From Alphaproteobacteria bacterium (GTDB lineage: Bacteria; Planctomycetota; Phycisphaerae; UBA1845): DNA of 64,000 nucleotides. Location of the stretch: the NCBI GenBank assembly GCA_028285105.1, contig JANQQE010000029.1, positions 40,256 to 104,255 of the forward strand, in the 5' to 3' direction. Shown piece by piece: positions 36,309 through 55,562 of the stretch (positions within the stretch are counted from its first letter, which is position 1; each line of letters begins with the position of its first letter). Both the position numbers and the translations under genes were made by a program. The notes below the pieces were generated by a model, which was not told the origin of the DNA, did no database searches, and saw nothing but the letters and a program-made list of their open reading frames with translations.

Positions 36309-37262
36309 ATGGTTACGACTCTTCGATTCATTGCCAGCCTACTCGGTCCGTCGCCTGTTGTGGATTCGGTCCCAGAAAAACGTGCCCAGCAGACGCGCCT
36401 GTCCTGTTGGTTTCCGTATCTCTTTCTTCATGTCGGCTGTCTTGGCGTGATCTGGGTGGGGTGGAGTTGGATTGCTGTGGCAGTGGCTGTGGCGCTCTAT
36501 TTTGTCCGGATGTTTGCGGTCACCGCGTTTTATCACCGTTATTTTTCCCACCGCACGTTTAAGACTTCGAGGTTTACCCAGTTTGTTTTTGCCGTCTGGG
36601 CGAATTCAGCCGCTCAACGCGGACCGATCTGGTGGGCTTGCCAGCACCGTCACCACCACCAACATTCCGACGATGAATGCGATGCCCATTCGCCCGATCA
36701 GCATGGCTTCTACTGGAGTCATATCGGTTGGCTTACGGCGCCGGACAACCTTGTGATTCATGCGCGACGTGTCCCGGACCTGCTTAGATTTCCTGAATTG
36801 CGATTTCTGGATCGATTCAGCGTGCTTGTGCCGTTGATCCTCGCAACTGTTCTGTATGGACTGGGCGCAGCGCTTGCGCACTTCACACCGAGTTTGGGCA
36901 CCAATGGTTGGCAGATGGTCGTGTGGGGATTCTTCATTTCGACGGTGGTCCTTTTTCACGGAACCTGCACGATCAATTCGCTCGCACATTTGCTGGGTTC
37001 GCGAAGATTTCGTACGACGGACAGCAGTCGAAACAGTCTATTGCTCGCAATGCTGACGCTGGGTGAAGGCTGGCATAACAATCATCATCGATATCCTGGA
37101 ACCGTCAAACAGGGTTTCTATTGGTGGGAGATCGATCCCACCTATGTCGGTTTGCGGTTCTTCGAGTGGATCGGTTTGATCTGGGAACTCAATCCCGTGC
37201 CCGAAAAGATTCTTGCCGAAGGTCAAGCCCAAGTGCATCGACCGTTGTCGGAGAGCAACTGA
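36309..37262 (+). CDS. Acyl-CoA/acyl-lipid delta-9-type fatty acid desaturase
   Basis: Three His boxes HRYFSH, HRHHH, HNNHH; TINSLAH; WEIDPTY. Confidence 0.93.
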   Translation: MVTTLRFIASLLGPSPVVDSVPEKRAQQTRLSCWFPYLFLHVGCLGVIWVGWSWIAVAVAVALYFVRMFAVTAFYHRYFSHRTFKTSRFTQFVFAVWANSAAQRGPIWWACQHRHHHQHSDDECDAHSPDQHGFYWSHIGWLTAPDNLVIHARRVPDLLRFPELRFLDRFSVLVPLILATVLYGLGAALAHFTPSLGTNGWQMVVWGFFISTVVLFHGTCTINSLAHLLGSRRFRTTDSSRNSLLLAMLTLGEGWHNNHHRYPGTVKQGFYWWEIDPTYVGLRFFEWIGLIWELNPVPEKILAEGQAQVHRPLSESN

Positions 37263-38506
37263 TGCAAATCGCTGTAATCGGCACGGGAATCTCCGGTTTG
37301 GTCGCGTCATACCTGCTTTCGGATCAATACGATCTGACCGTATTCGAGGCAAACGATTACGTGGGCGGTCACACCCATACGATTACTGTCGATGATCCAA
37401 CGGGCCCGACCAACGTTGACACCGGTTTCATCGTTTACAACGAATCGACCTACCCGAACTTCTGCAAACTGCTTGATCGCCTTGGTGTCGAAACCCAGCC
37501 GAGCAGCATGAGTTTCAGCGTTCGCGATGACGCTGCCGACATCGAATACAAGGGCGACAATCTCAATACCCTGTTCGCCCAGCGGAGCAACCTGCTTCGG
37601 TGGGGTCATTACCGAATGCTTTACGAAATCCTGCGGTTCTACCGGCAGTCGCGGCATCTTCTGAATGCACCGGCAGAACGATTGACCATGGGCCGCTACC
37701 TGCGGGAGCAGCGTTACTCGACGGAATTCATCGAGCGTCATCTGATACCGATGGGTGCAGCGATCTGGTCGGCAGATCCCGAGCAGTTCTATGACTTTCC
37801 TGCCGGGTATTTCGTCCGCTTTTGTTACAACCACGGAATGCTCAACATCCTCAAGCGCCCGCAGTGGCGGGTGATTCGCGGCGGGTCGAAGCAATATGTA
37901 CGCAAGATGATCGCGCCGTTTCGCGATCGCATTCGATTGAGCACACCCGTATCGGAGATCAAACGGCATGAAGATGGCGTGGAAGTTGTGTCGAAATCGT
38001 ATGGCGCGGAGCGATTTGATCAGGTGATCATTGCGGCGCACAGCGATCAGGCGCTGCGCATGCTCGCCAATCCGACGACAGCCGAGTCCGAAATTCTTCG
38101 GACGATGCGATATCAAGAAAACGATGTCGCCCTGCACCACGACACATCACGTCTGCCCCGACGTCAAAAAGCGTGGTCAAGTTGGAATTACCACATCCCC
38201 GAAAGACGGCAGTCCTCTGCGGTCGTCACGTACAACATGAACGAACTTCAGTCGCTGCGCACCGAAAGAACGTTTTGTGTGACGTTGAATTCGACGAATG
38301 ACATCGATCAAAAGAAATGCATTCGCCAACTCCGCTACGACCATCCCGTCTACACGACCGAAAGCGTTCTGTCGCAGAAGCGGCACGGAGAAATAAGCGG
38401 CAAAAACCGCACGCATTATTGCGGGGCATACTGGGGATACGGTTTTCATGAAGATGGGGTCAACAGCGCGCTGACGGTTTGCAAGGAATTCGGCAAGGAA
38501 CTTTGA
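37262..38506 (+). CDS. FAD-dependent oxidoreductase, UfaD/RSP_1091-like
   Basis: ATG 37262 overlaps the desaturase stop; IAVIGTGISGL dinucleotide fold; GGHTHT; VDTGFIVYN; CGAYWGYGFHEDG. Confidence 0.88.
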   Translation: MQIAVIGTGISGLVASYLLSDQYDLTVFEANDYVGGHTHTITVDDPTGPTNVDTGFIVYNESTYPNFCKLLDRLGVETQPSSMSFSVRDDAADIEYKGDNLNTLFAQRSNLLRWGHYRMLYEILRFYRQSRHLLNAPAERLTMGRYLREQRYSTEFIERHLIPMGAAIWSADPEQFYDFPAGYFVRFCYNHGMLNILKRPQWRVIRGGSKQYVRKMIAPFRDRIRLSTPVSEIKRHEDGVEVVSKSYGAERFDQVIIAAHSDQALRMLANPTTAESEILRTMRYQENDVALHHDTSRLPRRQKAWSSWNYHIPERRQSSAVVTYNMNELQSLRTERTFCVTLNSTNDIDQKKCIRQLRYDHPVYTTESVLSQKRHGEISGKNRTHYCGAYWGYGFHEDGVNSALTVCKEFGKEL

Positions 38507-38508
38507 CC

Positions 38509-39300
38509 ATGCACAGCGCGATTTACAAAGGTCGGGTTCGCCATCAGCGCTTTACACCCGTTCATCATGAATTCGATTATGCGTTGTTCATGATGTACCT
38601 CGATCTCGATGAACTACCCAATCTCTTTGATAACACGCGGTTGTGGTCGAATGGCGGCTGGGGCCTTGCGCGTTTCCGACGACGCGACCATCTCAAAGAC
38701 CACGCTCCGCCCACTCAGGACTTGCGCCAAGCCGTCCGCGATCTGGTCAGAGCGCGAACCGGTTCGACACCGTCCGGTCCCATTCGATTGCTAACGCATC
38801 TTGAATACTTCGGGCATCGATTCAATCCTGTGAGCCTTTTTTTCTGTTTTGACGATCGCAGCGAACACCTTGAAGCGATCGTTGTCGAAATCAACAACAC
38901 ACCCTGGGGCGAGCAACACTGCTACGTCCATCCTACCCATGACCGATCCAGACGCGGAAAAGCACTTTGTTTTGAGTTCGAGAAGGAATTCCACATCTCT
39001 CCATTTATGGCGATGAACATGCAGTACATCTGGACCTTCTCAAAACCTGCCGAACATTTTGCCGTTGTCATGGATACCATGAACAATGGCGAGAAGCACC
39101 TCAACGCTACGATGCAAATGCAACGCACAGAGTTGACCGCTGCCTCACTGAATCGCGCTCTTTTTCGCTACCCACTGATGACCACCCGGGTCCTTGCCGC
39201 CATCTACTGGCAGGCGCTGCGCCTGAGGCTGAAGGGTTGCCCGCGCTACACGCACCCCGCAACGCTCGCCCGAAAAAATCGAGGGGCCAAGACATGCTGA
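38509..39300 (+). CDS. DUF1365 protein, UfaO/RSP_1090-like
   Basis: IYKGRVRHQRFTPVHHEF, FNPVSLFFC, EINNTPWGEQHCY, KEFHISPFM, IYWQALRL. Confidence 0.9.
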   Translation: MHSAIYKGRVRHQRFTPVHHEFDYALFMMYLDLDELPNLFDNTRLWSNGGWGLARFRRRDHLKDHAPPTQDLRQAVRDLVRARTGSTPSGPIRLLTHLEYFGHRFNPVSLFFCFDDRSEHLEAIVVEINNTPWGEQHCYVHPTHDRSRRGKALCFEFEKEFHISPFMAMNMQYIWTFSKPAEHFAVVMDTMNNGEKHLNATMQMQRTELTAASLNRALFRYPLMTTRVLAAIYWQALRLRLKGCPRYTHPATLARKNRGAKTC

Positions 39301-40571
39301 GTAAAACGATCGTTCCGGTCTCGCAGCCTGCACCGCACGCGAGCCAGCCGGGCCTCTTGGATCGGATTGCCCGAAGGATGGTGGTTGCAGGTTTGCAACG
39401 CATTACCGCGGGCCGCTTGACTCTGACGGAAGGCGATGCACAGTCTCATTACGGCATTCAGAATACAGGTGAATCGACGGTACATATCCAAATCCATGAC
39501 CCGCGATTTTATCGATCCGTCGCATGGGGCGGAACACTGGGAGCCGGGCAGGCGTACATCAACGGGTGGTGGACATGCGACGATCTGACTCGCCTGATCC
39601 AGCTGGTCCTGCAAAATCAAGAATCGTTCGCCCAACTCAATGGGGGGCGAACGCGTTTTTCTGGAGCGCTATTGCGAGGGTGGAATCTGCTTCGGCGCAA
39701 CACGCTGAATGGAAGCCGGCAAAATATCGCAGCACACTATGACCTGAGCAACGAGTTCTACGAATTGTTCCTCGATGAATCCATGACCTATTCATGCGGT
39801 ATTTTCGAGTCAGAAAACGCGACGTTATACCAGGCGTCCGTCGCAAAACTCGATCGGATTTGCCGGAAACTCGAACTCAAGCCCGAAGATCATGTGATCG
39901 AAATCGGTACCGGGTGGGGCAGTTTTGCCATCCATGCAGCCAGGAACTACGGCTGTCGTATAACAACGACCACCATCTCGCAGCAGCAGTTCGATCTGGC
40001 AACCAAACGCTCTAAGGATGCAGGCCTGTCAGACCGAATCACGTTGCTGCAAACGGACTATCGTCAACTGACGGGCCAATACGACAAACTCGTGTCAATC
40101 GAAATGATCGAGGCCATCGGCTGGCAGCAATATCCCCAGTATTTCAGAATGTGCGGTGAACTGCTCAAACCGGAAGGCGTCGCTTGCATCCAGGCTATCA
40201 CGAAAGCCGACCGATTCTACGAAGACTCGAAACGGGCGGTCGATTTTATCAAACGATTCGTTTTTCCCGGAAGCTGTATACCATCCATCGGCGCGATGTC
40301 CGGCGCTGTCGCTCGCTCGTCGGATCTAACCATCGCGCATCTGGAAGACATCACACCGCACTACGCGACTACCCTTAGATGCTGGCGCGATCGGTTTAAC
40401 AGGCAGTTGCAAAACGTCCGCGCCCTCGGTTTCTCAGACGCATTCATCCGAATGTGGGAGTACTACCTTTGCTACTGCGAAGCCGGATTCCGCCAGCGGG
40501 TCATCGGAGACGTGCAGATGGTTTTGACCAAGCCTGGTTTCAGAGGGCAACTGCCATTGGGAACCCTATGA
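39294..40571 (+). CDS. cfa: SAM-dependent fatty-acyl-phospholipid methyltransferase (Cfa/UfaM family)
   Basis: NIAAHYDLSNEFYELFLDESMTYS, VIEIGTGWG, SIEMIEAIG, DFIKRFVFPG, HYATTL, MWEYYLCYCEAGF. Confidence 0.9.
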   Translation: MLSKTIVPVSQPAPHASQPGLLDRIARRMVVAGLQRITAGRLTLTEGDAQSHYGIQNTGESTVHIQIHDPRFYRSVAWGGTLGAGQAYINGWWTCDDLTRLIQLVLQNQESFAQLNGGRTRFSGALLRGWNLLRRNTLNGSRQNIAAHYDLSNEFYELFLDESMTYSCGIFESENATLYQASVAKLDRICRKLELKPEDHVIEIGTGWGSFAIHAARNYGCRITTTTISQQQFDLATKRSKDAGLSDRITLLQTDYRQLTGQYDKLVSIEMIEAIGWQQYPQYFRMCGELLKPEGVACIQAITKADRFYEDSKRAVDFIKRFVFPGSCIPSIGAMSGAVARSSDLTIAHLEDITPHYATTLRCWRDRFNRQLQNVRALGFSDAFIRMWEYYLCYCEAGFRQRVIGDVQMVLTKPGFRGQLPLGTL

Positions 40572-41149
40572 ACGAACCACCGAACATGTGGAGAATTGCA
40601 CTCGAAGTTGCCGGGTATCAGGTGGCTTGGTGGAGTTGCGTGCTGTCGGTTCGCGCCGAAGCGATATGGGTTGGCTTAACTGTGACAGTGGTCGTGTTCG
40701 CCATTCATCTTTCCTACTCGCCGAACGTTCAGGGCGAGCTTTGGGCCGTTCCCGTCGCTGCGGGAATGGGCTTCCTGACTGACATCGTGGCGACGTGGCT
40801 TGGCGCATTGAAGTTTGAATCGGCGACGCTGCCGCTGCTACCGGCACCGCTTTGGATCGCAGCCATGTGGTTGGCGTTTGCAATGCTGATCGTTCCATGT
40901 TTTGCCTGGCTGGCCGACCGCCCTTTGGCGGCTGCGTTGATGGGGGCGACGAGTGGACCCACCGCCTACGGTGCCGGTGTCGCACTTGGAATCGTGGAGA
41001 TGCCGCACCTTTGGTGGAGCGTTCTTACGCTCGCCGTCTTGTGGGCGATCGTTGTGCCGATTGCGATCAAGTTTGTTGTCGCATGTACGCTGGAATCGAT
41101 GACGGGCGAAGCATGTGTCGCAGCTCAACCGGAGACGCTTTGTGAATGA
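40568..41149 (+). CDS. DUF2878-like membrane protein
   Basis: ATGA coupling to cfa; YQVAWWSCV, APLWIAAMWLAFA, SGPTAYGAG; position typical of cfa clusters. Confidence 0.75.
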   Translation: MNEPPNMWRIALEVAGYQVAWWSCVLSVRAEAIWVGLTVTVVVFAIHLSYSPNVQGELWAVPVAAGMGFLTDIVATWLGALKFESATLPLLPAPLWIAAMWLAFAMLIVPCFAWLADRPLAAALMGATSGPTAYGAGVALGIVEMPHLWWSVLTLAVLWAIVVPIAIKFVVACTLESMTGEACVAAQPETLCE

Positions 41150-41933
41150 TTGGCTTCAACATCTCGGTTGGGGTTTGGGCGGTGCGGCCATCATGATGTT
41201 TGCCCTTTGGCTGATGCAGCGACGCACGAAGAATGCGGGGATTGTCGATGTGGGGTGGACTTTCGGAATCGGCGCGCTGACGCTTGGGCTTGCGGTATTT
41301 TCAAGCGGTGCGCTTTTTCGACGGGTGTTGGTTGCAACCATGACGATCGTCTGGTCGATGCGATTGGGTTACCACTTGGTGCGTCGCGTTTTCAGCGAAC
41401 CGGAGGACGGCCGCTACCGCAATCTCCGCGAATGGGCTGGCGATCGGCAGCAAATCGTGTTGCTCATATTCTTTTTGCTACAAGCCAGCTGGGTCGTTCT
41501 GTTCGCGATGCCTCAGTACATCGCCATGCAGAACGCGCGTCCGTTCGCCTGGTTCGACGCCGCGGCCATCGGCATATTCGCCGTTTCATTGATCGGCGAA
41601 TCGATCGCGGATCGACAGCTGGCCGCGTTTCGCGAATCCTCCGACAACCAAGGCAAGGTTTGCAAAATCGGATTGTGGCGTTACTCGAGGCATCCAAACT
41701 ACTTCTTCGAATGGCTGCATTGGTTCGCTTATCCGCTGTTGGCCGTCGGTATGGGCTGGCTCGCGTGGGTGACTTTGGTCGGTCCCGCATTGATGTTGCT
41801 GTTTCTGCTCAAGATTACCGGTATCCCTCCAACCGAGAAGCGTGCCCTTCAAAGTCGCGGCGAAAGATACCGAGAGTACCAACGCACCACCAGTGCATTT
41901 GTTCCCTGGTTTCCAAGGGAGAGTACGACATGA
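41142..41933 (+). CDS. DUF1295 (steroid 5-alpha-reductase-like) membrane protein
   Basis: NAGIVDVGW, EDGRY, ESIADRQL, GLWRYSRHPNYFFEWLHW, YREYQRTTSAFVPW; GTG 41142 with GGAG SD. Confidence 0.88.
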   Translation: MNDWLQHLGWGLGGAAIMMFALWLMQRRTKNAGIVDVGWTFGIGALTLGLAVFSSGALFRRVLVATMTIVWSMRLGYHLVRRVFSEPEDGRYRNLREWAGDRQQIVLLIFFLLQASWVVLFAMPQYIAMQNARPFAWFDAAAIGIFAVSLIGESIADRQLAAFRESSDNQGKVCKIGLWRYSRHPNYFFEWLHWFAYPLLAVGMGWLAWVTLVGPALMLLFLLKITGIPPTEKRALQSRGERYREYQRTTSAFVPWFPRESTT

Positions 41934-43054
41934 AAAGCGATTACAAATCATATGGACCGACTGCCCTGGCAGAACGTGGCTGGATACCGGAATTTTTGAT
42001 TCGCTGGGGCATTCGACGTCTGCTCAGCGCCCGCTTGCAAAAGGAATTGGGCGCCGATTGTGAGGAGCGCCACGAATCACAGCAGCGATTTCTTGAATCC
42101 ATGCATGACAGTCCGGTCGCAATCGTTCCGGAAAAAGCCAATGAGCAGCACTATGAAATCCCCGCAGCGTTTTTCGAGTTGGTACTCGGTCGCCATCGAA
42201 AATACAGTTGTTGCCAATGGACGGACCAAACGCATTCGCTTGACGACGCGGAGGCTGCGATGCTTTCCCTGACCTGCGAGCGTGCTGAACTCAAGGACGG
42301 CCAATCGATTTTGGAACTGGGATGTGGCTGGGGATCGCTCACGCTGTGGATGGCCAGACAGTATCCAAACGCCCGCATCACCGCGATCTCCAACTCGGCG
42401 AGTCAGGGGAGTTTTATTCGAAACCAGTGCGAGCAATCGGGTTTCAACAATGTCCGAGTGATGACGGCGGACATGAATGCATTCAAGCCGGACGGCGTGT
42501 TCGATCGGGTGATTTCCGTCGAGATGTTCGAGCACATGCGGAATCTAAGCGCACTGCTTCGCCGAATCGATGGTTGGCTGACCGAGGAAGGCAAGCTGTT
42601 CGTACATATTTTCACCCATCAATCGTGTTCCTACCCGTTCGAAACGACGGGAAAGGACGATTGGATGGGGCGATACTTTTTTTCAGGTGGCATGATGCCT
42701 TCCGACCACTTGCTGCTGTACTTGCAGGATACCTTGAAACTCGATCGCCACTGGTGCGTCAACGGTAAACACTATGAAAAAACGGCAAACGCATGGCTCA
42801 ACAATATGAATTCCCGTCGTTCGGAGATTCTGCCTGTCTTGCAACAGACGTATGGAGTAGCCGATGCCGAACGATGGTACCACCGCTGGCGAATGTTCTT
42901 CATGGCATGCGCCGAACTTTGGGGGTATCGCGATGGTAATGAATGGCGCGTTGGGCATTATTTGATGAGCCGTCGGGTGTCCACGGACTTGAAGTCGACG
43001 GGGGGCGATTCATTGGATTTTGTCAAAAGAGATACGCTATGCACTTCCGTTTGA
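41930..43054 (+). CDS. Second Cfa-like SAM-dependent methyltransferase
   Basis: ATGA coupling (ATG 41930); KANEQHYEIP, ILELGCGWG, SVEMFEHMRN, WMGRYFFSGG, WRMFFMACAELWG. Confidence 0.9.
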   Translation: MKSDYKSYGPTALAERGWIPEFLIRWGIRRLLSARLQKELGADCEERHESQQRFLESMHDSPVAIVPEKANEQHYEIPAAFFELVLGRHRKYSCCQWTDQTHSLDDAEAAMLSLTCERAELKDGQSILELGCGWGSLTLWMARQYPNARITAISNSASQGSFIRNQCEQSGFNNVRVMTADMNAFKPDGVFDRVISVEMFEHMRNLSALLRRIDGWLTEEGKLFVHIFTHQSCSYPFETTGKDDWMGRYFFSGGMMPSDHLLLYLQDTLKLDRHWCVNGKHYEKTANAWLNNMNSRRSEILPVLQQTYGVADAERWYHRWRMFFMACAELWGYRDGNEWRVGHYLMSRRVSTDLKSTGGDSLDFVKRDTLCTSV

Positions 43055-43668
43055 ATATTGCACTGGGCATGCTGGCGATGCTCTCCGGTTGCGAACGCCA
43101 ATCCGCGACTCCCGTTTCGACAGTGGATACGAATTCGGTTACACCGTCATCAAAGTTGGTGTCGGGTGATTCACTAAGAAGTCGCAGCAACAAAGCACTC
43201 AAGACCGTTGACGAAGTTGACCTCGATCGCTACCTCGGCAAATGGTATGAGTACGCCCGGTATCCGAACGCATTTCAGAAGAACATCGTAGGCGTCATTG
43301 CGGAGTATCGACGGCGCGACGACGGTCGTCTCGATGTCATCAACATGGGCAAGGTTCGGAAACTCGATGGCAAAGATGATCGATCCGAATCGATCGGATG
43401 GGTGGTTGAAGGGACCAAAAATACCCGCTGGCGGGTTCAGTTTATTTGGCCGTTCAGTGTTCCCTATTGGATCATCGATCTGGATGACGACTACCAATGG
43501 GCCGTCGTCGGTCAACCGTCCCGAAAATACCTGTGGGTCTTGAGTCGAACGCCACAACTCGATGACGAAATTTTCAGCGCAATCTGCGATCGATTGAAAG
43601 AGCAGGGCTACGATCCAGCGCGACTCAAGAAAACGCCCCAGCCTCAAGGAGACTCAAAGCCGAAATGA
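43039..43668 (+). CDS. blc: Lipocalin lipoprotein (Blc family)
   Basis: Lipobox LSG-C; VDLDRYLGKWYEYAR; QFIWPF; YWIIDLDDDYQWAVVG; YLWVLSRTP. Confidence 0.88.
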   Translation: MHFRLNIALGMLAMLSGCERQSATPVSTVDTNSVTPSSKLVSGDSLRSRSNKALKTVDEVDLDRYLGKWYEYARYPNAFQKNIVGVIAEYRRRDDGRLDVINMGKVRKLDGKDDRSESIGWVVEGTKNTRWRVQFIWPFSVPYWIIDLDDDYQWAVVGQPSRKYLWVLSRTPQLDDEIFSAICDRLKEQGYDPARLKKTPQPQGDSKPK

Positions 43669-43799: not shown

Positions 43800-44642
43800 T
43801 CACCCGGTAGAGCAACTGGCATCATCGAAAAATGTTCCCGTTGCTTGCCAGAGCGATTCCAGGCGATCGATACGCTCCCGAGCATCATCACCCAGCAAAA
43901 CAGCGGCGCGGGCGACGATGAGTTCGGCTGCTACGACTGCGGGCACGGAACTGTCGAACGGTCCGACTGCCGGAATCTTCAGGTGCCCCCATGCATGCGA
44001 GATTTGCGCAATCGGGGAAAGTGGTCCGTCGGTAATCGCGAGGATCTTGACGCCTTCATCGGCCAATGCCCTGGCTGCCGTAATCGAGTGACGCCGGTAG
44101 CGACTGAAATCGAACACGACCGCAGCTTCGCCGGCGCGGGCCCCGGCCAAATCCCTGCCCATTTCGTACTCGGTGACCAGTCGAACATCCGACCTGAGCA
44201 TCGACAATCCCGCATACAACGTGTGTGCCCCCGCCAACGAAGTCTCGCCGGAAAGGATCCAGACATGAGCCGCTTCGACCATCGGTTGAACCAGTGCGTC
44301 AAGTCGCCGATCGGTGAGCGACTCGAACACGTCGTAGACGGCTTCGAGCACCGATCGACGAAGCGGACCGGCTTCCTGCTGTTGCCGAATGCGATGGCTC
44401 GGTCTTGAGAGTTGATCTGAAACTTGGTCTCGTTCTTGCGCCTGGAGGTCCGAATACCCTTCGAATCCCAACTTCATCGCGAACCGCACGATGGAAGGCC
44501 GACTGGTGCCAACACGGTCGGCCAACTCCGAGACCGTCCCAAACGCGAGCAACGTCGGATTTTCCATTACTGCTTCGGCGATTCGACGTTCGGTCGGGGT
44601 GAGGCGGTCGCCCGCAGTCGCGATGAGATCCTGGATGGACAA
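43800..44642 (-). CDS. MurR/RpiR-family transcriptional regulator (HTH + SIS)
   Basis: LTPTERRIAE...TVSELADRVGTSRPSIVRFAMKLGFEGYSDLQ; SIS motifs VFDFSRY, ILAITDGPLSPIA. Confidence 0.92.
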   Translation of the reverse strand: MSIQDLIATAGDRLTPTERRIAEAVMENPTLLAFGTVSELADRVGTSRPSIVRFAMKLGFEGYSDLQAQERDQVSDQLSRPSHRIRQQQEAGPLRRSVLEAVYDVFESLTDRRLDALVQPMVEAAHVWILSGETSLAGAHTLYAGLSMLRSDVRLVTEYEMGRDLAGARAGEAAVVFDFSRYRRHSITAARALADEGVKILAITDGPLSPIAQISHAWGHLKIPAVGPFDSSVPAVVAAELIVARAAVLLGDDARERIDRLESLWQATGTFFDDASCSTG

Positions 44643-44743: not shown

Positions 44744-46210
44744 ATGATCCAGAAGCTGAAACACATCCCGACGGCGCGCGAACAGGCTTTTCTCGACACC
44801 GTCGAGGATACGCAATACCAGCGCGACATCATCAACGGACTCTCACCATTTTTCGATGAAAAAGCGCCTGCGGACATGCTTCAATTCTATTCCAAAGGCG
44901 AAGTCGCCTCGCTCCGCGTTCTCAAGGGGACCGACCGCGATGTCGAAGATCGCATGCCGGTCAAGATTACACGTCACTATTACGAGTTGGCGAAGAACTC
45001 AGAACCGATCAGCCGAATCGTCAAAGCCAGCCCGGACGAAACGGACAACCTTCAGGGTTCTGAAGACCCCGGTTTTCAAATGGACTATGCGCCGGTCGAA
45101 GGGCTGCTCCACAAATACGAAATGGGCTTGATGTACGTCATCTCGACATGCTCTGCACACTGTCGATTTTGTTACCGCGAAGAACTCATCGCCCGAAAAG
45201 ATATTGAACGGCAGGACGGGACCGTTGCCAAGAAGGGTCTGGCACAGATTCCCGAGATCATCGCATACATCAAAGAACACAATGACGCGGTGGAAGCCAA
45301 CGGTGGTCGTCACCCCGAAAGCGGACGCGAGAAACTCCGAGAGATTCTCCTGTCGGGTGGTGACGCCATGGTCCTTGGCAATTCCAAACTTGCCGCATGG
45401 TTCGGTGCGCTTGCCGAAGCCGGGATCGAATCCATCCGCGTCGGAACCAAGGAGATGGCGTTCTACCCCCAGCGCTTCGACCGCACGCTGCTTGAAATGC
45501 TCGACCGATTCCATGAAACGTACCCGCAGGTCGGGATGCACTTCATGCTTCACTTTCAGCACCCCGACGAAATTCTTGCCAAGGATGCTGACGGAAACTA
45601 CATCGAGGATGAAAAGGGCTTCAAGCAGTGGATTCCGGAAACCGGCGAAGCAATGCGCGGGCTGGTCTCGCGCGGGTGGCTGACTGTTGAAAATCAGGCA
45701 CCGATCATCAAAGGCATCAACGACGATGCCGATGCACTTCGCATTCTCCAGCGAGAATTCAAACGCGCTGGCGGAGAGAACCACTACTTTTTCTGTGGCC
45801 GCGATATCGTCGCATACAAAGCGTTTAACATTCCCATCGAAGAGGCGTGGAGTATTCTCAACACGTCCCAGAGGGGTTTATCCGGTGTAGAATGCCACGC
45901 CAAACTTTCGATCACGCACTACAAAGGCAAGACCGAAGTGGCGGCAGTGACCAACGAACCGATTCCGGGCCTTGCCGGTTCCGAAAACGGTGTCGTGATT
46001 TTCAAGATCCTGCGTAATGCCGGTAGCGCGCCAGACAAAGGAAAGGTCTGCATCGTCGGCCGCAACCCCAATGCCGTCTGGTTCGACGATTACGAAGACC
46101 GTGTCCTCTTCGATGAAGCCGGTTTGTATAATTACGACCGAGTGAAGAAATCGGGTGAAGCGCCGAGTAGTTGTTCGGCTTCCGCCGGCAAACCAGGGTG
46201 TGCGGGATGA
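44744..46210 (+). CDS. KamA-family radical-SAM/PLP amino acid 2,3-aminomutase, probably non-lysine substrate
   Basis: EGLLHKY, CSAHCRFCYR (CxxxCxxC plus Arg), LLSGGDA, HFQHPDEI, NQAPIIKGIND, GKTEV (PLP Lys); ATG 44744 with GGAG SD. Confidence 0.85.
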   Translation: MIQKLKHIPTAREQAFLDTVEDTQYQRDIINGLSPFFDEKAPADMLQFYSKGEVASLRVLKGTDRDVEDRMPVKITRHYYELAKNSEPISRIVKASPDETDNLQGSEDPGFQMDYAPVEGLLHKYEMGLMYVISTCSAHCRFCYREELIARKDIERQDGTVAKKGLAQIPEIIAYIKEHNDAVEANGGRHPESGREKLREILLSGGDAMVLGNSKLAAWFGALAEAGIESIRVGTKEMAFYPQRFDRTLLEMLDRFHETYPQVGMHFMLHFQHPDEILAKDADGNYIEDEKGFKQWIPETGEAMRGLVSRGWLTVENQAPIIKGINDDADALRILQREFKRAGGENHYFFCGRDIVAYKAFNIPIEEAWSILNTSQRGLSGVECHAKLSITHYKGKTEVAAVTNEPIPGLAGSENGVVIFKILRNAGSAPDKGKVCIVGRNPNAVWFDDYEDRVLFDEAGLYNYDRVKKSGEAPSSCSASAGKPGCAG

Positions 46211-46917
46211 TCGACAAGCGTGTGAACACGCCGCATGAAGTGGTCGCCGACATCTTCGACGGTGCGACCATCATGATTGGCGGGTTTGGGGAAGCGGGCA
46301 GTCCGGTCGAGTTGCTCCATGCGATCATCGATCAAGGTGCATCCGACCTGACGATCATAAGCAACAACACCGGTTCGGGCGAAGTCGGTCTCGCGGCGCT
46401 CATCAAAGTCGGGCGGGTTTCAAAAGCGATCTGCTCCTATCCGCGCACTGCCAACTCGACTGTTTTTGCAGAACTCTATCGAAGCGGTCGCATCGAACTC
46501 GAACTTGTTCCGCAGGGTACGTTGGCTGAACGCATTCGTTGCGGTGGTGCGGGGGTGCCGGCGTTTTATACCGCAACGGCCGTCGGTACCCCGCTGGCTG
46601 AGGGTAAGGAACTGCGCGAGTTTGAAGGCAAGCAATACGTACTAGAGCGGGGCCTTCGAGCAGACTTTACGATCATCAAGGCCCGCACTGCCGACGTTCA
46701 CGGTAACCTTTTATACAACAAGACGGCCCGCAATTTCGCGCCGATCATGGCGACGGCATCGAACTGTACGATCGTGCAGGCGCAGGATGTCGTTGAGGCA
46801 GGCGACATCGATCCGGAAACCGTTGTGACGCCCGGTTTGTTCGTAGATCGTGTTGTTCAAGTCGCAGAACCAGCCCACGAATCCGAACTTGTCGCCGCCG
46901 GAGCTTCCTACCCATGA
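46207..46917 (+). CDS. pcaI: 3-oxoadipate CoA-transferase subunit A-like
   Basis: IMIGGFGEAGSP, SNNTGSGEVGLAAL, CSYPRTANSTVFAELYRSGRIELELVPQGTLAERIR, ARNFAPIMA; ATGA coupled. Confidence 0.85.
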   Translation: MIDKRVNTPHEVVADIFDGATIMIGGFGEAGSPVELLHAIIDQGASDLTIISNNTGSGEVGLAALIKVGRVSKAICSYPRTANSTVFAELYRSGRIELELVPQGTLAERIRCGGAGVPAFYTATAVGTPLAEGKELREFEGKQYVLERGLRADFTIIKARTADVHGNLLYNKTARNFAPIMATASNCTIVQAQDVVEAGDIDPETVVTPGLFVDRVVQVAEPAHESELVAAGASYP

Positions 46918-47597
46918 CCAGCAAAGATTCGAAAGCGGGTTGGTCGCGCGAGGAGATGGCTGCCCGTCTTGCTCAAGACATTCCCAACGGGTCGTATGTG
47001 AACCTTGGCATCGGTATTCCTGAACTCGTTGCCAGATTCGTACCCGAAGACAAGACGCTCATCTACCACACCGAGAATGGCTTGATTGGAATGGGCCCTT
47101 CACCGGAAGCGGGACAAGGCGATCCTGAACTGATCAATGCAGGCAAGCGTCAAGTCACGGCGATGCCCGGTGCGGCATACTTTCATCACGCCGACAGTTT
47201 CGTCATGATTCGTGGTGGACACATCGATCTGTGTGTCCTCGGTGCGCTTCAGGTCGCGCAAAATGGCGACCTCGCAAATTGGTCCACCGGTCAGCCCGAC
47301 GCAATACCGGCGGTCGGTGGTGCGATGGACCTCGTCGCAGGGGTCAAGTCCATCTACGTCATCACCCAGCACACAACCAAGCATGGCGATCCAAAACTCG
47401 TCGAATCCTGTACGTATCCACTGACCGGGCTTGGCGTGGTCGATCGCATTTACACGAACCTCGCCGTCATCGAAGTGACGCCGGATGGGTTTGGCGTCAG
47501 CGAACTCAGTCCGGGTATCGATTTCCAAGACGTGCAAAACCAAACCGGCGCTCCACTCAGCGATATCCGCGAAAGCGCGACGGCAAACAACCCATGA
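46914..47597 (+). CDS. pcaJ: 3-oxoadipate CoA-transferase subunit B-like
   Basis: YVNLGIGIP, HTENG (catalytic Glu), LINAGK, YFHHADSF.MIRGGH, IPAVGGAMDL, CTYPLTG; ATGA coupled. Confidence 0.85.
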   Translation: MTSKDSKAGWSREEMAARLAQDIPNGSYVNLGIGIPELVARFVPEDKTLIYHTENGLIGMGPSPEAGQGDPELINAGKRQVTAMPGAAYFHHADSFVMIRGGHIDLCVLGALQVAQNGDLANWSTGQPDAIPAVGGAMDLVAGVKSIYVITQHTTKHGDPKLVESCTYPLTGLGVVDRIYTNLAVIEVTPDGFGVSELSPGIDFQDVQNQTGAPLSDIRESATANNP

Positions 47598-48916
47598 ACA
47601 CACGAACCGATCTCTCGCGTTGCGCCGATCTTTTTGCTCGGGCGCAGAAAGTTCTACCGGGTGGCGTTTCACGTAACACAGTCTTACGTTCACCCTATCC
47701 CGCGTATGCAGACTACGGAAAAGGTTGCCACGTCACCGATCTTGACGGGGTCACACGCATCGACTTCTCCAATAACATGGCCTCCCTCATCCACGGGCAC
47801 GCCCATCCCGAAATTGTCCGGGTCGTCAACGAGCAGATGGCCCGCGGCTCGGCATTCATGCTGGCGACTGAGGTTGAAGTGCAGTATGCGGAACACCTGT
47901 GTTCACGCTCGCCTTCGTTCGACATGCTGCGATTTGTAAACTCCGGGACCGAAGCCATCATGGTCGCGATCAAAGCCAGTCGTGCATTTACAGGTAAATT
48001 TAAAGTCGCAAAGGTGGAAGGTGCCTACCACGGAGGGTACGACTACGCGGAAGTCTCGCAAGCGCCGACACCGGAGACATGGGGCAGCCACGACAAACCG
48101 CACTCAGTGCCTCTGGTGCATGGCACGCCAGAGTCTTCGCTGCGCGACGTCGTGATCATTCCCTTTAACGACACCGACCGGGCCATCAAGATCTTAAACG
48201 AACACGCCCACGAGGTTGCCTGCGTTCTGCTCGATCTCATGCCGCACCGAGTCGGATTGAATCTCGTCAAGCCGGAATACATCGAAGCAATACAGAAGTG
48301 GGTTGCCGATCACGACGCCCTCCTGGTACTCGACGAAGTTATTACCTTTCGTTCTGAGTACGGCGGACTGCAAACTCGCTATGGCATCAAGTCTGACCTC
48401 ACTGCTCTTGGCAAGATGATCGGCGGCGGTTTTCCAGTCGGCGCCGTCGCGGGCCGGGCCGATGTCATGGACGTCCTTAATCCCAAATCGCACCGGTTCC
48501 TGTTCCCTCACTCCGGCACGTTTTCGGCCAACCCGATTTCGATGTCGGCGGGTTTGATGGCGATGGCGTTATTCGACCAGAAGGAGGTCGCGAGACTGAA
48601 CGCCCTGACCGATCGTGCGATTGACGGTATCAGAAAAGCCATCGACACCACGGGAGCCTGCGCGTGCGTCACGGGCGGTGGATCGATGTTGCGCGTTCAT
48701 ATGAAAGAAGAACCACCGCACAATTTTCGCGAAGCATTCAATACGGACGCCGAGAAAATGCGATTGGCCACGCTGCTCGATCACCTGTTCTCCGAGGGCT
48801 TTATCATGATCAACACCTGCTCGGCGACGCTTTCAACGCCCATGACGGAAATCGAAATCGATGCGCTCGTTGCGGCCATGGAATCAGGACTCGCAAAGAT
48901 CGCGTCAATGCCTTAG
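47594..48916 (+). CDS. Class III PLP aminotransferase (HemL-like fold, not HemL)
   Basis: ATG 47594 with ATGA coupling; LPGGVSRN, RFVNSGTEA, GAYHGGYD, LDEVITFR, DLTALGKMIGGGFPVGA, HSGTFSANP. Confidence 0.9.
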   Translation: MNTRTDLSRCADLFARAQKVLPGGVSRNTVLRSPYPAYADYGKGCHVTDLDGVTRIDFSNNMASLIHGHAHPEIVRVVNEQMARGSAFMLATEVEVQYAEHLCSRSPSFDMLRFVNSGTEAIMVAIKASRAFTGKFKVAKVEGAYHGGYDYAEVSQAPTPETWGSHDKPHSVPLVHGTPESSLRDVVIIPFNDTDRAIKILNEHAHEVACVLLDLMPHRVGLNLVKPEYIEAIQKWVADHDALLVLDEVITFRSEYGGLQTRYGIKSDLTALGKMIGGGFPVGAVAGRADVMDVLNPKSHRFLFPHSGTFSANPISMSAGLMAMALFDQKEVARLNALTDRAIDGIRKAIDTTGACACVTGGGSMLRVHMKEEPPHNFREAFNTDAEKMRLATLLDHLFSEGFIMINTCSATLSTPMTEIEIDALVAAMESGLAKIASMP

Positions 48917-50118
48917 GCCTTCGAGAAAATCGTGGCAAGACCTTGCCCAACGCCAACACACAATGAAGCGATTCCTCGTTCAACGCCTCGTCGACTCATC
49001 TCGTGGATCAGCGTTGTCGCGATCCGTGTACCGCTGCATCCGAGCGGGTGTCCAATTGCAATTGCGCCACCGTTTACATTGAGTTTGTCGTCAGTGATCT
49101 TGAGGTCGCGCTGACAAGCGATCGACTGCGCGGCAAAGGCTTCGTTGATTTCAACAAGTCCGACATCGTCAAGTGTAAGCCCCGCCCGATCCAATGCCTT
49201 GCGGATCGCCGGTACCGGTCCAAGTCCCATGTAAGCCGGGTCAACGCCGGCTGACGCACTGCAACCGACGAATGCGATGGGTTTCAAACCCAGCGCCGCT
49301 GCTTTTGATTCTTCGACGATCAGCAAGGCGGCTGCCCCATCGTTCACGCCCGAAGAATTCCCAGCCGTCACAGTTCCTTTGTCATCCTTTGCAAACACGG
49401 GGCGGAGTTTGGCCAACTGCTCCATGGTCACGTCGGGCCGGGGATGCTCATCTGTATCCACGACCAGCGCCGGTCCTTTTCGCTGAGAAATTTCAACCGG
49501 CACGATCTCATCGTTAAATGCGCCTTGCTTCTGCGCTTTTGCCCACTTCTGTTGGCTCGACAACGCAAATCGATCCTGCGATTCTCGATCGATTCCGTAT
49601 TTGCGTGCCACATTCTCCGCTGTCTCACCCATCGGAAACGGGTGATGCTTCTCAGCCAACTTTGGATTTACAAAGCGCCACCCGATGGACGTGTCGTAGA
49701 TTTGTTGTGTCCGACCATATGCATTCTCGGACTTGCTCAGCACGTATGGGGCACGGCTCATCGACTCGACTCCGCCAGCCACAAACACATCGCCGTGATT
49801 CGCCTCAATCATGCGGGCTGCGATGTTGATGGCTTCAAGCCCCGAAGCACACAGACGATTGACCGTTGACCCCGGAATCGTCTCGGGGAGTCCGGCGAGC
49901 AATGCGGCCATCCGCGCGACATTGCGGTTGTCTTCACCAGCCTGGTTGGCGGCACCGAAGTAGACATCGTCGATCAGCGAAGACTCGATGCCTGATCGCT
50001 GGATGACAGCGCGAATGACGGTGGCAGCAAGATCATCGGGCCGAACCGTAGCAAGCCTTCCACCAAATCGTCCGACCGGCGTGCGGACAGCAGCAATAAC
50101 AGCAGCTCGACGTTTCAT
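48913..50118 (-). CDS. pcaF: Beta-ketoadipyl-CoA thiolase-like (PcaF/PaaJ family)
   Basis: VRPDDLAA, ANQAGEDNRNVARMA, TVNRLCASG (Cys), TSIGWRFVNP, NEAFA, GGAIAIGHPLG, SLCVGVGQG. Confidence 0.85.
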   Translation of the reverse strand: MKRRAAVIAAVRTPVGRFGGRLATVRPDDLAATVIRAVIQRSGIESSLIDDVYFGAANQAGEDNRNVARMAALLAGLPETIPGSTVNRLCASGLEAINIAARMIEANHGDVFVAGGVESMSRAPYVLSKSENAYGRTQQIYDTSIGWRFVNPKLAEKHHPFPMGETAENVARKYGIDRESQDRFALSSQQKWAKAQKQGAFNDEIVPVEISQRKGPALVVDTDEHPRPDVTMEQLAKLRPVFAKDDKGTVTAGNSSGVNDGAAALLIVEESKAAALGLKPIAFVGCSASAGVDPAYMGLGPVPAIRKALDRAGLTLDDVGLVEINEAFAAQSIACQRDLKITDDKLNVNGGAIAIGHPLGCSGTRIATTLIHEMSRRGVERGIASLCVGVGQGLATIFSKA

Positions 50119-52456: not shown

Positions 52457-52505
52457 GAGATATCAACCATGCGCATTTATCAGCGAATGATCGGGAAGGG
52501 TGAAG

Positions 52506-55500
52506 ATGCATAAGAAGCAATGCGGTGATCGTTTTGTCGTTGGATTTTCGGTATTGGTTATGTTGGCGGCTGGCGGATTGGCAAACGGGCAATCGGTAGG
52601 GCTGCAGTCTGCGGATTCGGTTTGGACAACGGCGCTGCGCGCGGCGGTTGAGGGTGAACTGGCACAGGCGTGGGTGCGTCCGCAGCAGTATCAAGCCGTC
52701 ACATTTGACGAACGACAAATGAGTCTGCTTATCAAAGGCGCTCCGCTTGAAGATGAGATATCGGTTCGCGACACGTCGTCTGTCATCGAACTTCCAATGC
52801 CCGACGGCTCGTTCTCACGGTTTCGATTTGTAGAAGCTCCGGTGATGGCCCCGGAACTGGCCGCCCGTTTTCCAGAGATTCGAACGTTTTATGGGCAGGG
52901 CATCGACGATCCGCATGCACAAGTGCGGTTCGACAAGACTCCGGCAGGCTTCCACGCTCAAATCTTGAGCCCCAACGGAGCCGTCTACATTGACCCGATC
53001 AACAGAGGCGATACGCTGAATTATGCCAGCTATTACAAGCGCGACTTGGCCCAGCCAAACGAACTGCCCAAGTGTCAACTCTTCCCGAATCCCGATGCCG
53101 GACATGCCGGCAATTCAACTGACAATGCGCGCGGGGCGGAACGCGTTGCCGAAACGCTCCGAACGTATCGTTTGGCTGTCGCAACAACGGCAGAGTACAC
53201 ACAGTTTCACGGTGGAACGGTTCCTTTGGGGATGGCCGCTGTCGTAACGGCAGTTAATCGTGTGACCGGTGTGTACGAATCAGAGGTCGCAGTTCGCTTT
53301 GAGCTCATCGCTAACAACGATTTGCTGATCTACACATCCAACCCCGACCCGTACTCAAACGGCGACGGAATTGCCATGCTGGGGCAGAATCAAAGCAACA
53401 TCGACAGCGAGATCGGAAGTGGGAACTACGACGTCGGACATGTTTTCAGCACTGGTGGCGGTGGTGTTGCAAGTCTGGGAGTGATCTGTTCAGGATCGAA
53501 AGCGCGGGGAGTGACTGGACAGGGCAGCCCCATCGGCGATCCGTTCTACATCGACTATGTTGCTCACGAATTGGGGCATCAATTCGGCTCCAACCACAGC
53601 TTTAATGGTGTTGGCGGCAATTGCGCCGGTGGTAATCGAAACGGTTCAACCGCCTACGAACCTGGCAGCGGTTCGACAATCATGGCTTACGCTGGAATTT
53701 GCAGCAGCGACAATCTGCAATCCAACAGCGATCCGTATTTTCACCACGACAGCTTCCGCGAGATTCGCAATCACATAACCGGCGGATCGGGTAACAATTG
53801 CCCGGTCACAACCGCGACGGGAAACAACGATCCGGCTGTGAACGCCGGCGCGAACCACACAATTCCGCAGGGCACGCCTTTTGAATTGACGGCAAGCGGT
53901 TCAGATCCAGACCTCGATCCGCTTACCTATTGCTGGGAAGAACGCGACCTGGGTCCGGCACAATCGATCGCGTCTTCCGACAATGGCAGCAGCCCGCTGT
54001 TTCGATCGTACAACCCGACGGTCAGCCCGACACGTACGTTTCCGCGTTTGCAGGATTTGATCAACAACACGACCGCGCCGGGCGAGCAGTTGCCATCAAC
54101 GAACCGCGCAATGAATTTCCGCTGTACAGCCCGCGACAACCAAGCCGGTGGCGGCGGAGTCGATTTCGATGATATGGTCGTCACGGTCACGACGAGTTCA
54201 GGTCCGTTCATCGTTACCTCACCCAACGGCGGGGAAACGTGGTCCGGAGTCGCAACCGTTAATTGGAACGTCGCAGGCACGGACAGCGCCCCAGTGTCGG
54301 CTGCGACAGTTGACCTGCTTCTTTCGACGGATGGCGGTTTGACCTATCCGATTGTATTGGCAAGCGGAACGCCCAATGACGGAAGCGAGTCGGTGATCGT
54401 GCCCAATGCGCCAACAAGCACTGCCCGCGTCAAGGTCAAGGGCAGTGGCAATGTATTCTTCGACATTTCAAATGCGGACTTCACAGTAGACCAACCCGGC
54501 GCTTTGGCCATCGTGCTTCCTTCGGGGCCTCCGAGTGAAGTGCCGCCAAGTGTCACTACCAATATCGACGTTCAAGTGATTCCCATTGGTGAGAACATCG
54601 TGCCCTCGTCGCCAACGCTGCATTATCGCCCGAATATCTTCGTGTCGTTCCAGACGATCGCATTAAATCCTGTAGGTGGCGATCTCTACGAAGCACCGTT
54701 GCCCGGTTTCACCTGTTCGGATGCTGCCCAGTTCTACTTCAGTGCTCAGGGTGACGGTGGTACAACCGTGACGACGCCTGTCGATGCGCCTTCCTCATTC
54801 TTTATTGCCAATGTCGGACAGAACGAGCAGGTCTTTGCAGATAGTTTTGAAACCGATTTGGGATGGACAGCGACCGGTAACGCATCGGAAGGTCAATGGG
54901 AGTTGGGCATTCCGGTGGACTTCGATCGCGGCGACCCAACCGCTGACTTTGACGGATCGGGTCAGTGTTACCTCACCGAGAACGATCCTGGTGACAGCAA
55001 CTCGGACGTCGACGATGGTACGGCTACGCTGACGTCGCCAGTATTCGATCTATCCAATGGCGGCACGATCAACTATGCCTACTGGTTAAATGACATTCCA
55101 ACAGGTCCTCTGGGGTCAGAGGATTCGATGGAAGTCGAGTACGCCACCAATGTGGCTGGCACGAATTGGCAGACGATTCGCACTTACACGTCAGCATCGG
55201 GCAGTTGGCGAAACGACAGCATCGAAGTCGGTTCCGAGACGGCGTCAAGTTCAACATTTCGAATTCGTTTTTCGGTCAGCGATCTGTCGCCAGGCGATGT
55301 TGTCGAAGGCGGTCTCGATGCGTTCGAGATTACTGCTTTCACCTGCACGGACATTGGCAACGGCGATTTCGACCTGGATGGCGATGTGGACCTGGCCGAC
55401 TTCGCCGAAATGCAGGCGTGCTGGGGAGCGACGAGTCCACTGGGTGTTTGCGCGCCTGGCGATTTGGACGGCAGCGCATCGATTGGTATCAATGACTTGC

Positions 55501-55538: not shown

Positions 55539-55562
55539 TAGTTTCGTTCAATAGGATGGTAC

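Follow-up and report, generated by a model that had tools for sequence, protein, structure and literature searches.

What does a remote homologue of lysine 2,3-aminomutase do at the head of an operon for a CoA-transferase and an aminotransferase, and on which amino acid does it act? The question is raised by a 64,000-nt stretch of DNA (the window; contig JANQQE010000029.1 of GenBank assembly GCA_028285105.1, positions 40,256 to 104,255 of the forward strand) from a bacterium of the Phycisphaerae, in which the gene at 44744..46210 (+) encodes a 488-aa homologue of the KamA-family 2,3-aminomutases, enzymes that depend on radical S-adenosylmethionine (SAM) and pyridoxal 5'-phosphate (PLP). To our knowledge, lysine, glutamate and arginine are the only established substrates of radical-SAM 2,3-aminomutases. 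An initial annotation of the window, made from the letters alone, had proposed that a charge reversal at the substrate-binding positions of this protein indicates an acidic substrate. From its sequence we infer that the gene product is a functional radical-SAM, PLP-dependent amino-acid 2,3-aminomutase of a deep, uncharacterized KamA branch. It may well open a catabolic module of five proteins, with L-2-aminoadipate as the best guess for its substrate, a combined proposal to which we give somewhat less than an even chance.

The ATG start at 44744 is backed by homologues of 477-492 aa (some of them also 488 aa) that span 95-100% of the protein, and the source genome has no second KamA-family gene. 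The aminomutase had no Pfam match at E <=0.001, and on six NCBIfam KamA-type models it scored 69-86 bits, below all of their cut-offs (199-650). These scores were 86.2 bits against a cut-off of 199.2 for the general KamA family (TIGR00238), 68.9 against 525.4 for lysine 2,3-aminomutase (LAM/AblA; TIGR03820), 73.3 against 369.3 for EpmB (TIGR03821), 77 against 650 for glutamate 2,3-aminomutase (TIGR04368), and 80.8 against 600 for arginine 2,3-aminomutase (TIGR04468). The sole sequence match in the Protein Data Bank (PDB) was LAM of Clostridium subterminale (2A5H; 1.4e-13 in the pairwise search and 6.6e-36 with the family profile). Foldseek, given an AlphaFold2 model of the protein (mean pLDDT 85.7, pTM 0.85), returned the same structure as the best match (E 4e-17, TM 0.57/0.67, ~19-20% identity), followed by generic radical SAM enzymes (the next at 7e-6 and the rest at E 1e-5 or worse). 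As modeled, the fold of the aminomutase is of the LAM type.

Residues 10-341 of 2A5H, recovered from a printed alignment, show C125/C129/C132, R134, D293 (in YYIYQCD), and D330 and K337 (in FVVDAPGGGGK), in agreement with the LAM motifs and numbers given in the initial annotation. Arg353 of the aminomutase (codon CGC, 45800..45802 (+)) fell opposite Asp293 in each of three alignments, i.e., within a weak, 1.7-bit stretch of the pairwise phmmer alignment, in a MAFFT L-INS-i alignment with 29 relatives, and, with high posterior at the column, in an alignment of a 16-sequence family profile to 2A5H (116 bits). The adjacent Asp354 (GRD) was ruled out as the Asp293 equivalent by the same three alignments and by its poor conservation beyond the core family. 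Its column is invariant only in the closest family and holds Asn in the 68%-identical relative P0122 and Leu, Glu, Pro, Thr or Gln further out, while the Arg stays. Segment K-L-S-I-T-H-Y-K-G-K396 (45905..45931 (+)) corresponded in the MAFFT alignment to the D330-K337 loop of LAM. At the D330 position the family sequence is shorter by one residue (KLS-ITHYKGK) and nothing acidic is found, and Lys396 (AAG, 45929-45931) lies opposite K337, the PLP lysine of LAM; this pairing comes from the MAFFT alignment alone, the profile-to-2A5H alignment ending at LAM residue 320. Both G395 and K396 are invariant, and Lys396 is the putative PLP lysine of the aminomutase.

The remainder of the catalytic apparatus was likewise in place. 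The MAFFT alignment with 2A5H set the [4Fe-4S] motif C136-x3-C140-x2-C143, followed by Tyr144-Arg145 (45149..45178 (+)), on C125/C129/C132 of LAM, with Arg145 at the position of the carboxylate-binding R134, and S204-G-G-D207 opposite S169-D172, the SAM motif, which is invariant. Since Arg145 is kept, the substrate is likely to be a free amino acid. Conservation of the pattern was examined in 121 close homologues out of more than 2000 database matches. The cluster motif read CSAHCRFCYR in 120 of them and CSSHCRFCYR in one, with the cysteines and Arg145 invariant; SGGD and CGRD were kept in all 121; and SITHY[KR]GK was also universal (SITHYKGK in 117, SITHYRGK in 4). Arg353 itself was invariant both in the profile-family alignment and in 121/121 close homologues. 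Other conserved catalytic or barrel residues include H123/Y125, N317/Q318, N326/D327 and an HxxHPxE motif. Because it is invariant across the 121 close homologues, the residue pattern is no chance feature. These alignments bear out what the initial annotation had read by eye, namely an Arg at the Asp293 position, no Asp at position 330 but a retained PLP lysine, and a retained carboxylate-binding Arg after CxxxCxxC. The annotation had also named two outcomes that would speak against it, and the first of these, the GRD Asp falling on position 293, is not the case.

The second, clustering inside the lysine aminomutases, was not found either. In an IQ-TREE phylogeny with LAM as its only characterized protein (the glutamate 2,3-aminomutase Eam of C. 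difficile and BlsG are not among its sequences), the aminomutase lay outside the LAM/EpmB-like clade. It fell in a separate, long-form clade, beyond a branch of length 1.35 and 100/100 support that parts it from the LAM-containing clade, and this long-form clade is marked by two insertions (~16 aa after LAM T160 and ~19 aa after E239). No characterized enzyme was found among the nearest cluster representatives, since none of the 20 scanned reached any equivalog cut-off. LAM and two uncharacterized relatives that keep Asp293 (LAM-like P0270 and EpmB-like P0264, both scoring below equivalog cut-offs) were nested among short, Arg-bearing proteins. Indeed, uncharacterized KamA-like proteins of 340-720 aa, from bacteria, archaea and rotifers, usually carry Q-C-R at position 293 and [MIL]-S-[HT]..GK where LAM has D330. 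The suggestion that Arg plus a neutral residue is a new signature therefore has to be given up: the Arg appears to be the widespread state, and the Asp looks like a specialization for lysine. Because the Arg is common in KamA-like proteins and the Asp-bearing clade is nested among them, Arg353 is firmer evidence against lysine than for an acidic substrate. Its presence argues strongly against a lysine substrate. Thus, the charge-reversal argument survives in part: a substrate other than lysine is indicated by the lost Asp, the low family scores and the tree, but the Arg by itself is a weak indicator of an acidic one.

Several of these relatives differ from the aminomutase in other ways. Six long-form proteins with 31-39% identity to it (P0133, P0137, P0141, P0143, P0144 and P0163) keep Arg353 and the PLP lysine and have Gln or Val at the position of LAM R134; judged by this residue, their substrates may lack a free alpha-carboxylate. 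Five others (P0160, P0170, P0179, P0180 and P0181) are 600-720 aa long; they are extended at the N-terminus and end in a Cys-rich domain resembling, by eye, a 2Fe-2S ferredoxin. Annotations assign the P0169 cluster (491-661 aa) to Rotaria sordida, a bdelloid rotifer. The 600-720-aa proteins and the P0169 cluster keep the Arg (YACREI) and MSTE.GK motifs, and this type may represent an aminomutase of eukaryotes, perhaps gained by horizontal transfer, that carries its own electron donor.

If the residues say mainly what the substrate is not, the genomic context is the better evidence that it may be acidic. Directly downstream of the aminomutase gene lie the genes for subunit A (PcaI/ScoA family; 46207..46917 (+); TIGR02429, 336 bits, cut-off 128.5) and subunit B (PcaJ/ScoB family; 46914..47597 (+); TIGR02428, 293 bits, cut-off 243.6) of a 3-oxoacid CoA-transferase, and then the gene for a class-III, HemL-like aminotransferase (47594..48916 (+); Pfam Aminotran_3). 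The four genes are translationally coupled through ATGA start/stop overlaps at 46207-46210, 46914-46917 and 47594-47597. They are flanked by a convergent gene for a thiolase of the beta-ketoadipyl-CoA (PcaF/PaaJ) type (48913..50118 (-), typed by pcaF models and PDB matches) and a divergent gene for an RpiR-family regulator (43800..44642 (-); Pfam HTH_6 4.6e-14, SIS 4.2e-8). A scan of 185,579 species genomes returned 407 loci, and neighborhoods were counted in the best 80 (76-92% identity), which belong to Phycisphaerae, to other Planctomycetota and to Verrucomicrobiota, the last being mostly Chthoniobacterales. Subunit A was found downstream of the aminomutase in 76/80 of these loci, subunit B in 72/80 and the aminotransferase in 63/80, a PcaF-like thiolase was adjacent in 30/80, and an RpiR orthologue lay divergently upstream in 31/80, all of them in Phycisphaerae or other Planctomycetota and none in Verrucomicrobiota. 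The order aminomutase-A-B-aminotransferase recurs in Phycisphaerae and Verrucomicrobiota with 67-80% identity across the two phyla, while the operon is rare and patchy in its phylum (6/251 genomes), being present and absent within one genus. This patchiness, together with the identity across phyla, indicates that the operon has spread horizontally. No substrate-supplying enzyme or transporter traveled with the module across the 80 loci.

Two departures from the common arrangement were seen in the Verrucomicrobiota. In Chthoniobacterales (e.g., L014, 10898-13911) the A and B genes are often 1-4 kb apart, with unrelated open reading frames between them, including a ParE toxin gene, so that the operon has evidently been interrupted by mobile insertions and yet retained. 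In 26 Verrucomicrobial loci, an SCP2-type thiolase gene (Thiolase_N + Thiolase_C_1, 411 aa; e.g., L014, 6462-7700 (-)) lies divergently upstream of the aminomutase, in the place occupied by the RpiR regulator in Phycisphaerae.

The partner enzymes were typed by their scores and nearest structures. The best PDB match of the CoA-transferase was 3CDK, the succinyl-CoA:3-ketoacid CoA-transferase (ScoA) of B. subtilis, of the acetoacetate-type SCOT. By its scores the transferase belongs to the succinyl-CoA:3-oxoacid family, and these scores fit the PcaIJ (3-oxoadipate) and the ScoAB (acetoacetate) type alike. A role as HemL was ruled out for the aminotransferase, which reached 321 bits on the hemL model TIGR00713 (cut-off 527) in a genome with a true hemL elsewhere (contig C24, 606 bits). 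The best PDB match was 6K8H (368 bits), a Sphaerobacter thermophilus transaminase acting on beta- and gamma-amino acids (PMC10589169), and the beta-phenylalanine transaminases 4AO9 and 2YKU matched as well; it is a putative beta-amino-acid (or beta-aminoacyl-CoA) transaminase. The thiolase scored ~411 bits on acetoacetyl-CoA thiolase models, ~150 below the pcaF-type models, and its best PDB matches were 1ULQ, 8GQH and the beta-ketoadipyl-CoA thiolase of P. putida (6PCA to 6PCD). It is encoded by the only PcaF-like gene in the source genome.

This thiolase was co-inherited with the operon. Counting as an orthologue any match of at least 60% identity, we found the thiolase in 15/17 carrier genomes, including 12/12 of the Verrucomicrobia tested, as opposed to 0/18 non-carriers. 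The non-carriers had no thiolase match above 50% identity at all, and two of them share a genus with two carriers. In carrier G252 the gene is present yet unlinked, some 1 Mb away. For a pathway that would end in PcaF-type thiolysis, this co-inheritance is the strongest evidence. Contacts to the succinyl carboxylate have been described for the thiolase Tfu_0875 (PMC11061225); these are docking-derived and were not used here.

From the residue pattern, the fold, the conservation of the operon and the co-inheritance of the thiolase, all observed, we infer a set of catalytic activities, an order of transamination and CoA transfer, and a substrate. By a radical SAM/PLP 1,2-shift, the aminomutase would transfer the amino group of a free L-amino acid from the alpha carbon to C3, with Arg353 as the putative ligand of the distal carboxylate of a dicarboxylic substrate. 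The HemL-like transaminase would convert the resulting beta-amino acid to a 3-oxoacid, the PcaIJ/ScoAB-type transferase would form the 3-oxoacyl-CoA with succinyl-CoA as the donor, and the PcaF-type thiolase would release acetyl-CoA and a shortened acyl-CoA. Applied to L-2-aminoadipate, the sequence would run through 3-aminoadipate, 3-oxoadipate and 3-oxoadipyl-CoA to succinyl-CoA and acetyl-CoA, and would thereby regenerate succinyl-CoA, its own CoA donor. By analogy, each of the proposed steps corresponds to a known reaction type of its protein family. No described combination of these steps was found in the searchable literature, nor was a published characterization of the aminomutase or its operon, and no publication was found that deals with the metabolism of 3-aminoadipate or with a natural route from beta-glutamate to 3-oxoglutarate.

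How far can the substrate be narrowed? The acidic dicarboxylic substrate that the initial annotation had suggested fits the operon partners, a succinyl-CoA CoA-transferase and a co-inherited thiolase of the beta-ketoadipyl-CoA type, and we regard such a substrate as fairly probable. Within this class 2-aminoadipate is favored because the module's final two enzymes correspond to the lower beta-ketoadipate pathway and because succinyl-CoA would be regenerated; as a putative assignment it is our best guess, though one that falls a little to well short of even odds. The source genome also encodes stand-alone homologues of both halves of human AASS, the lysine-ketoglutarate reductase (LKR) half (G000:C35:184772-186058 (-)) and the saccharopine dehydrogenase (SDH) half (G000:C13:121100-122485 (+)), each at ~225 bits. 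By these homologies this genome encodes the whole saccharopine route, in two parts, towards 2-aminoadipate semialdehyde, and this was counted for 2-aminoadipate.

Several observations weigh against the 2-aminoadipate assignment. The two saccharopine genes are unlinked to the operon and clustered with nothing relevant, and such genes were found in 1/29 other carriers and are rare in the phylum (2/25 genomes sampled). Since they are absent from 28/29 other carriers, a supply of 2-aminoadipate from lysine is not general, and the saccharopine link was rejected as general support for this substrate. No L-lysine 6-transaminase scored above cut-off in the source genome. The thiolase scored just under the cut-offs of its own models (559 bits against 597 for TIGR02430, 564 against 605 for NF006551). 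As a sign of an acidic substrate Arg353 is weak, the residue being common in uncharacterized KamA-like proteins, and by simple geometry the longer reach of Arg relative to Asp would favor a substrate shorter than lysine, e.g., glutamate, over 2-aminoadipate, which has the length of lysine. On the sequence evidence, an RpiR/SIS regulator of the sugar-phosphate type is an odd companion for an amino-acid pathway, and by analogy with Kat, a HemL-like 3-aminobutyryl-CoA transaminase, the aminotransferase could act on a CoA ester instead of a free acid.

Glutamate is the nearest rival as an acidic substrate. The enzyme would then be a second type of glutamate 2,3-aminomutase, forming beta-glutamate and from it 3-oxoglutarate, which would either be activated and cleaved to malonyl-CoA and acetyl-CoA via 3-oxoglutaryl-CoA or decarboxylate to acetoacetate, from which a ScoAB-type transferase and the thiolase would give two acetyl-CoA. 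Arg353 would be analogous, with a similar reach, to the Lys reported for the C. difficile glutamate enzyme, TIGR04368 gave the longest of the NCBIfam alignments (residues 73-381), and the nearest structure to the transferase is an acetoacetate-type SCOT. Moreover, the lack of any supplying gene traveling with the module fits a ubiquitous substrate, and the operon occurs in small genomes without saccharopine genes. Against this, the score on TIGR04368 was 77 bits for a cut-off of 650, the thiolase that is inherited along with the operon fits the beta-ketoadipyl-CoA type, ~150 bits above the acetoacetyl-CoA models, and succinyl-CoA would not be regenerated; we also know of no natural thiolysis to malonyl-CoA. 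On balance, we consider glutamate a serious rival, though an unlikely one. A substrate that is neither 2-aminoadipate nor glutamate is doubtful, though it keeps an appreciable share of the probability. One such case, the same module acting on a neutral or otherwise non-acidic compound (leucine, methionine, 2-aminobutyrate, or an N-acylated or amide amino acid) with Arg353 in a structural role or at the PLP or SAM site, would account for the Arg at position 293 in most KamA-like proteins and in unrelated genomic contexts, and for those relatives that combine Arg353 with Gln at R134, in which the Arg is perhaps not tied to one substrate class. Poston is said to have proposed a beta-leucine/beta-keto route of such a shape decades ago. 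A PcaF-type thiolase and a succinyl-CoA-type transferase nevertheless point to dicarboxylic intermediates, and the model places the invariant Arg353 at a barrel strand's C-terminal end, which is also the location of the substrate-binding Asp in LAM. This case, too, seems improbable.

The order and the direction of the steps can be questioned as well. The CoA-transferase might act first, making a beta-aminoacyl-CoA, so that the HemL-like enzyme would be an acyl-CoA beta-transaminase like Kat; this order would be compatible with either 2-aminoadipate or glutamate. Kat is likewise HemL-like and its gene lies beside a thiolase (PMC3149608), and the gene order aminomutase-transferase-aminotransferase matches that of the reactions, but the closest solved relative of the aminotransferase, 6K8H, uses free beta- and gamma-amino acids (PMC10589169) and TIGR02429/TIGR02428 transferases are defined by 3-oxoacid substrates. 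The likeness to Kat here is one of shared HemL-like character only, and we hold this order to be possible though rather doubtful. A module running in the biosynthetic direction, yielding a beta-amino acid, or 2-aminoadipate from succinyl-CoA and acetyl-CoA, as an osmolyte or as a precursor of lysine or a natural product, is very improbable. All of the steps are reversible in principle, and the source genome has the saccharopine-pathway enzymes that fungi use in lysine synthesis; these genes do not co-occur with the operon, though, the 80 loci had no downstream biosynthetic genes, such as those for an acetyltransferase, ATP-grasp enzyme, nonribosomal peptide synthetase or polyketide synthase, and the architecture mirrors that of catabolic lower pathways.

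Comparison with known systems helps to place the module. LAM (KamA of Clostridium subterminale, 2A5H; also AblA and EpmB) shares with the aminomutase the fold, CxxxCxxC, SGGD, the PLP lysine, the carboxylate-binding Arg and many barrel residues, and by analogy the latter presumably uses LAM's radical 1,2-amino shift. It differs from LAM in the replacement of Asp293 by Arg, the deletion or replacement of Asp330, the two insertions, a different C-terminal domain, its own 100/100-supported branch and its place inside a catabolic operon that has no kamDE, kdd or kce gene. It also lacks a Cys at the position of LAM C268, which we take to be a zinc ligand. The glutamate 2,3-aminomutase of C. difficile (Eam, TIGR04368) also has a basic residue for Asp293 and a neutral one for Asp330, and could be a functional analogue; in the account of Ruzicka and Frey from 2007, these are reportedly Lys and Asn, whereas the aminomutase has Arg at position 293 and a deletion at position 330. 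We know of no link between Eam and a module of transaminase, CoA-transferase and thiolase.

The lower beta-ketoadipate pathway (PcaIJ and PcaF) supplies a second parallel, in that the transferase passes the family cut-offs and the thiolase is best matched by PcaF models and structures. In contrast to that pathway, the operon is detached from aromatic ring-cleavage genes and would be fed by two enzymes that handle amino groups. Kat takes part in a variant of lysine fermentation and is the only known acyl-CoA beta-transaminase (Perret et al., 2011; PMC3149608). Its pathway draws on the same families (KamA, an A/B CoA-transferase, a HemL-like beta-transaminase and a thiolase) and on the same logic, in which a beta-amino compound becomes a beta-keto thioester that is cleaved by thiolysis, but the module described here has a succinyl-CoA-type transferase and a thiolase of the beta-ketoadipyl-CoA rather than the acetoacetyl-CoA type. 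Lysine 5,6-aminomutase KamD (PF09043) was found in 0/30 carriers, but control genomes also gave no match, and kdd and kce were not searched for. With the loss of both Asp that bind the epsilon-amine of lysine, a group that the aminomutase therefore cannot bind, and with KamD in 0/30 carriers (a search that had no positive control), both classical and Kat-type lysine fermentation were rejected, the classical form being unlikely. For all its likeness to the Kat variant and to the lower beta-ketoadipate pathway, the operon is neither. The aminomutase lacks what defines the lysine, glutamate and arginine enzymes and appears to represent a new family branch, with probably a new specificity and a new pathway arrangement.

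Should these readings hold, the enzymology of radical-SAM 2,3-aminomutases would be extended, either to a fourth substrate or to an independent second kind of glutamate enzyme, and the shift of an amino group followed by treatment of the product like a beta-keto acid would constitute a new form of bacterial amino-acid catabolism. A route from 2-aminoadipate would bypass 2-oxoadipate dehydrogenase and glutaryl-CoA, 3-aminoadipate would be a new natural metabolite, and the enzymes would be useful for making beta-amino diacids. The most specific version, that the family is the first 2-aminoadipate 2,3-aminomutase and forms, with a beta-aminoadipate transaminase, a horizontally mobile route into the last two beta-ketoadipate steps, is tentative, and we would sooner expect some part of it to fail. 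With ~70-90% identity and a patchy occurrence in Phycisphaerae, other Planctomycetota and soil Verrucomicrobiota, the module has the appearance of an environmentally widespread, transferable trait. The labels 'lysine 2,3-aminomutase', 'glutamate-1-semialdehyde aminomutase' and 'acetyl-CoA acetyltransferase' on its proteins are each probably wrong.

Among the distant relatives of the aminomutase that were inspected, only the P0134 branch (L106/L107, 47% identity) again lies beside CoA-transferase genes. Its protein is 630 aa long, with a ~150-aa N-terminal extension, and two convergent CoA_trans genes are adjacent; the scaffold carries a tandem duplication of the aminomutase unit that is possibly an assembly artefact. 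The more distant relative P0126 adjoins sucCD, the neighbors of P0130, P0135, P0137, P0143, P0185, P0220, P0236 and P0282 were not informative, and small unknown genes downstream of three distant relatives had no homology to one another. Elsewhere in the window, a co-oriented run at 36309-43668 (+) encodes a fatty-acid desaturase, an FAD amine-oxidase-like protein, a DUF1365 protein, a Cfa-type methyltransferase, a DUF2878 protein, a second Cfa-like methyltransferase and a lipocalin, and in its gene content resembles an operon for lipid modification (furan or cyclopropane fatty acids). Farther downstream, at 52500-58256 (+), a 1012-aa reprolysin/M12B-like metallopeptidase and an 897-aa multicopper oxidase are encoded by neighboring genes.

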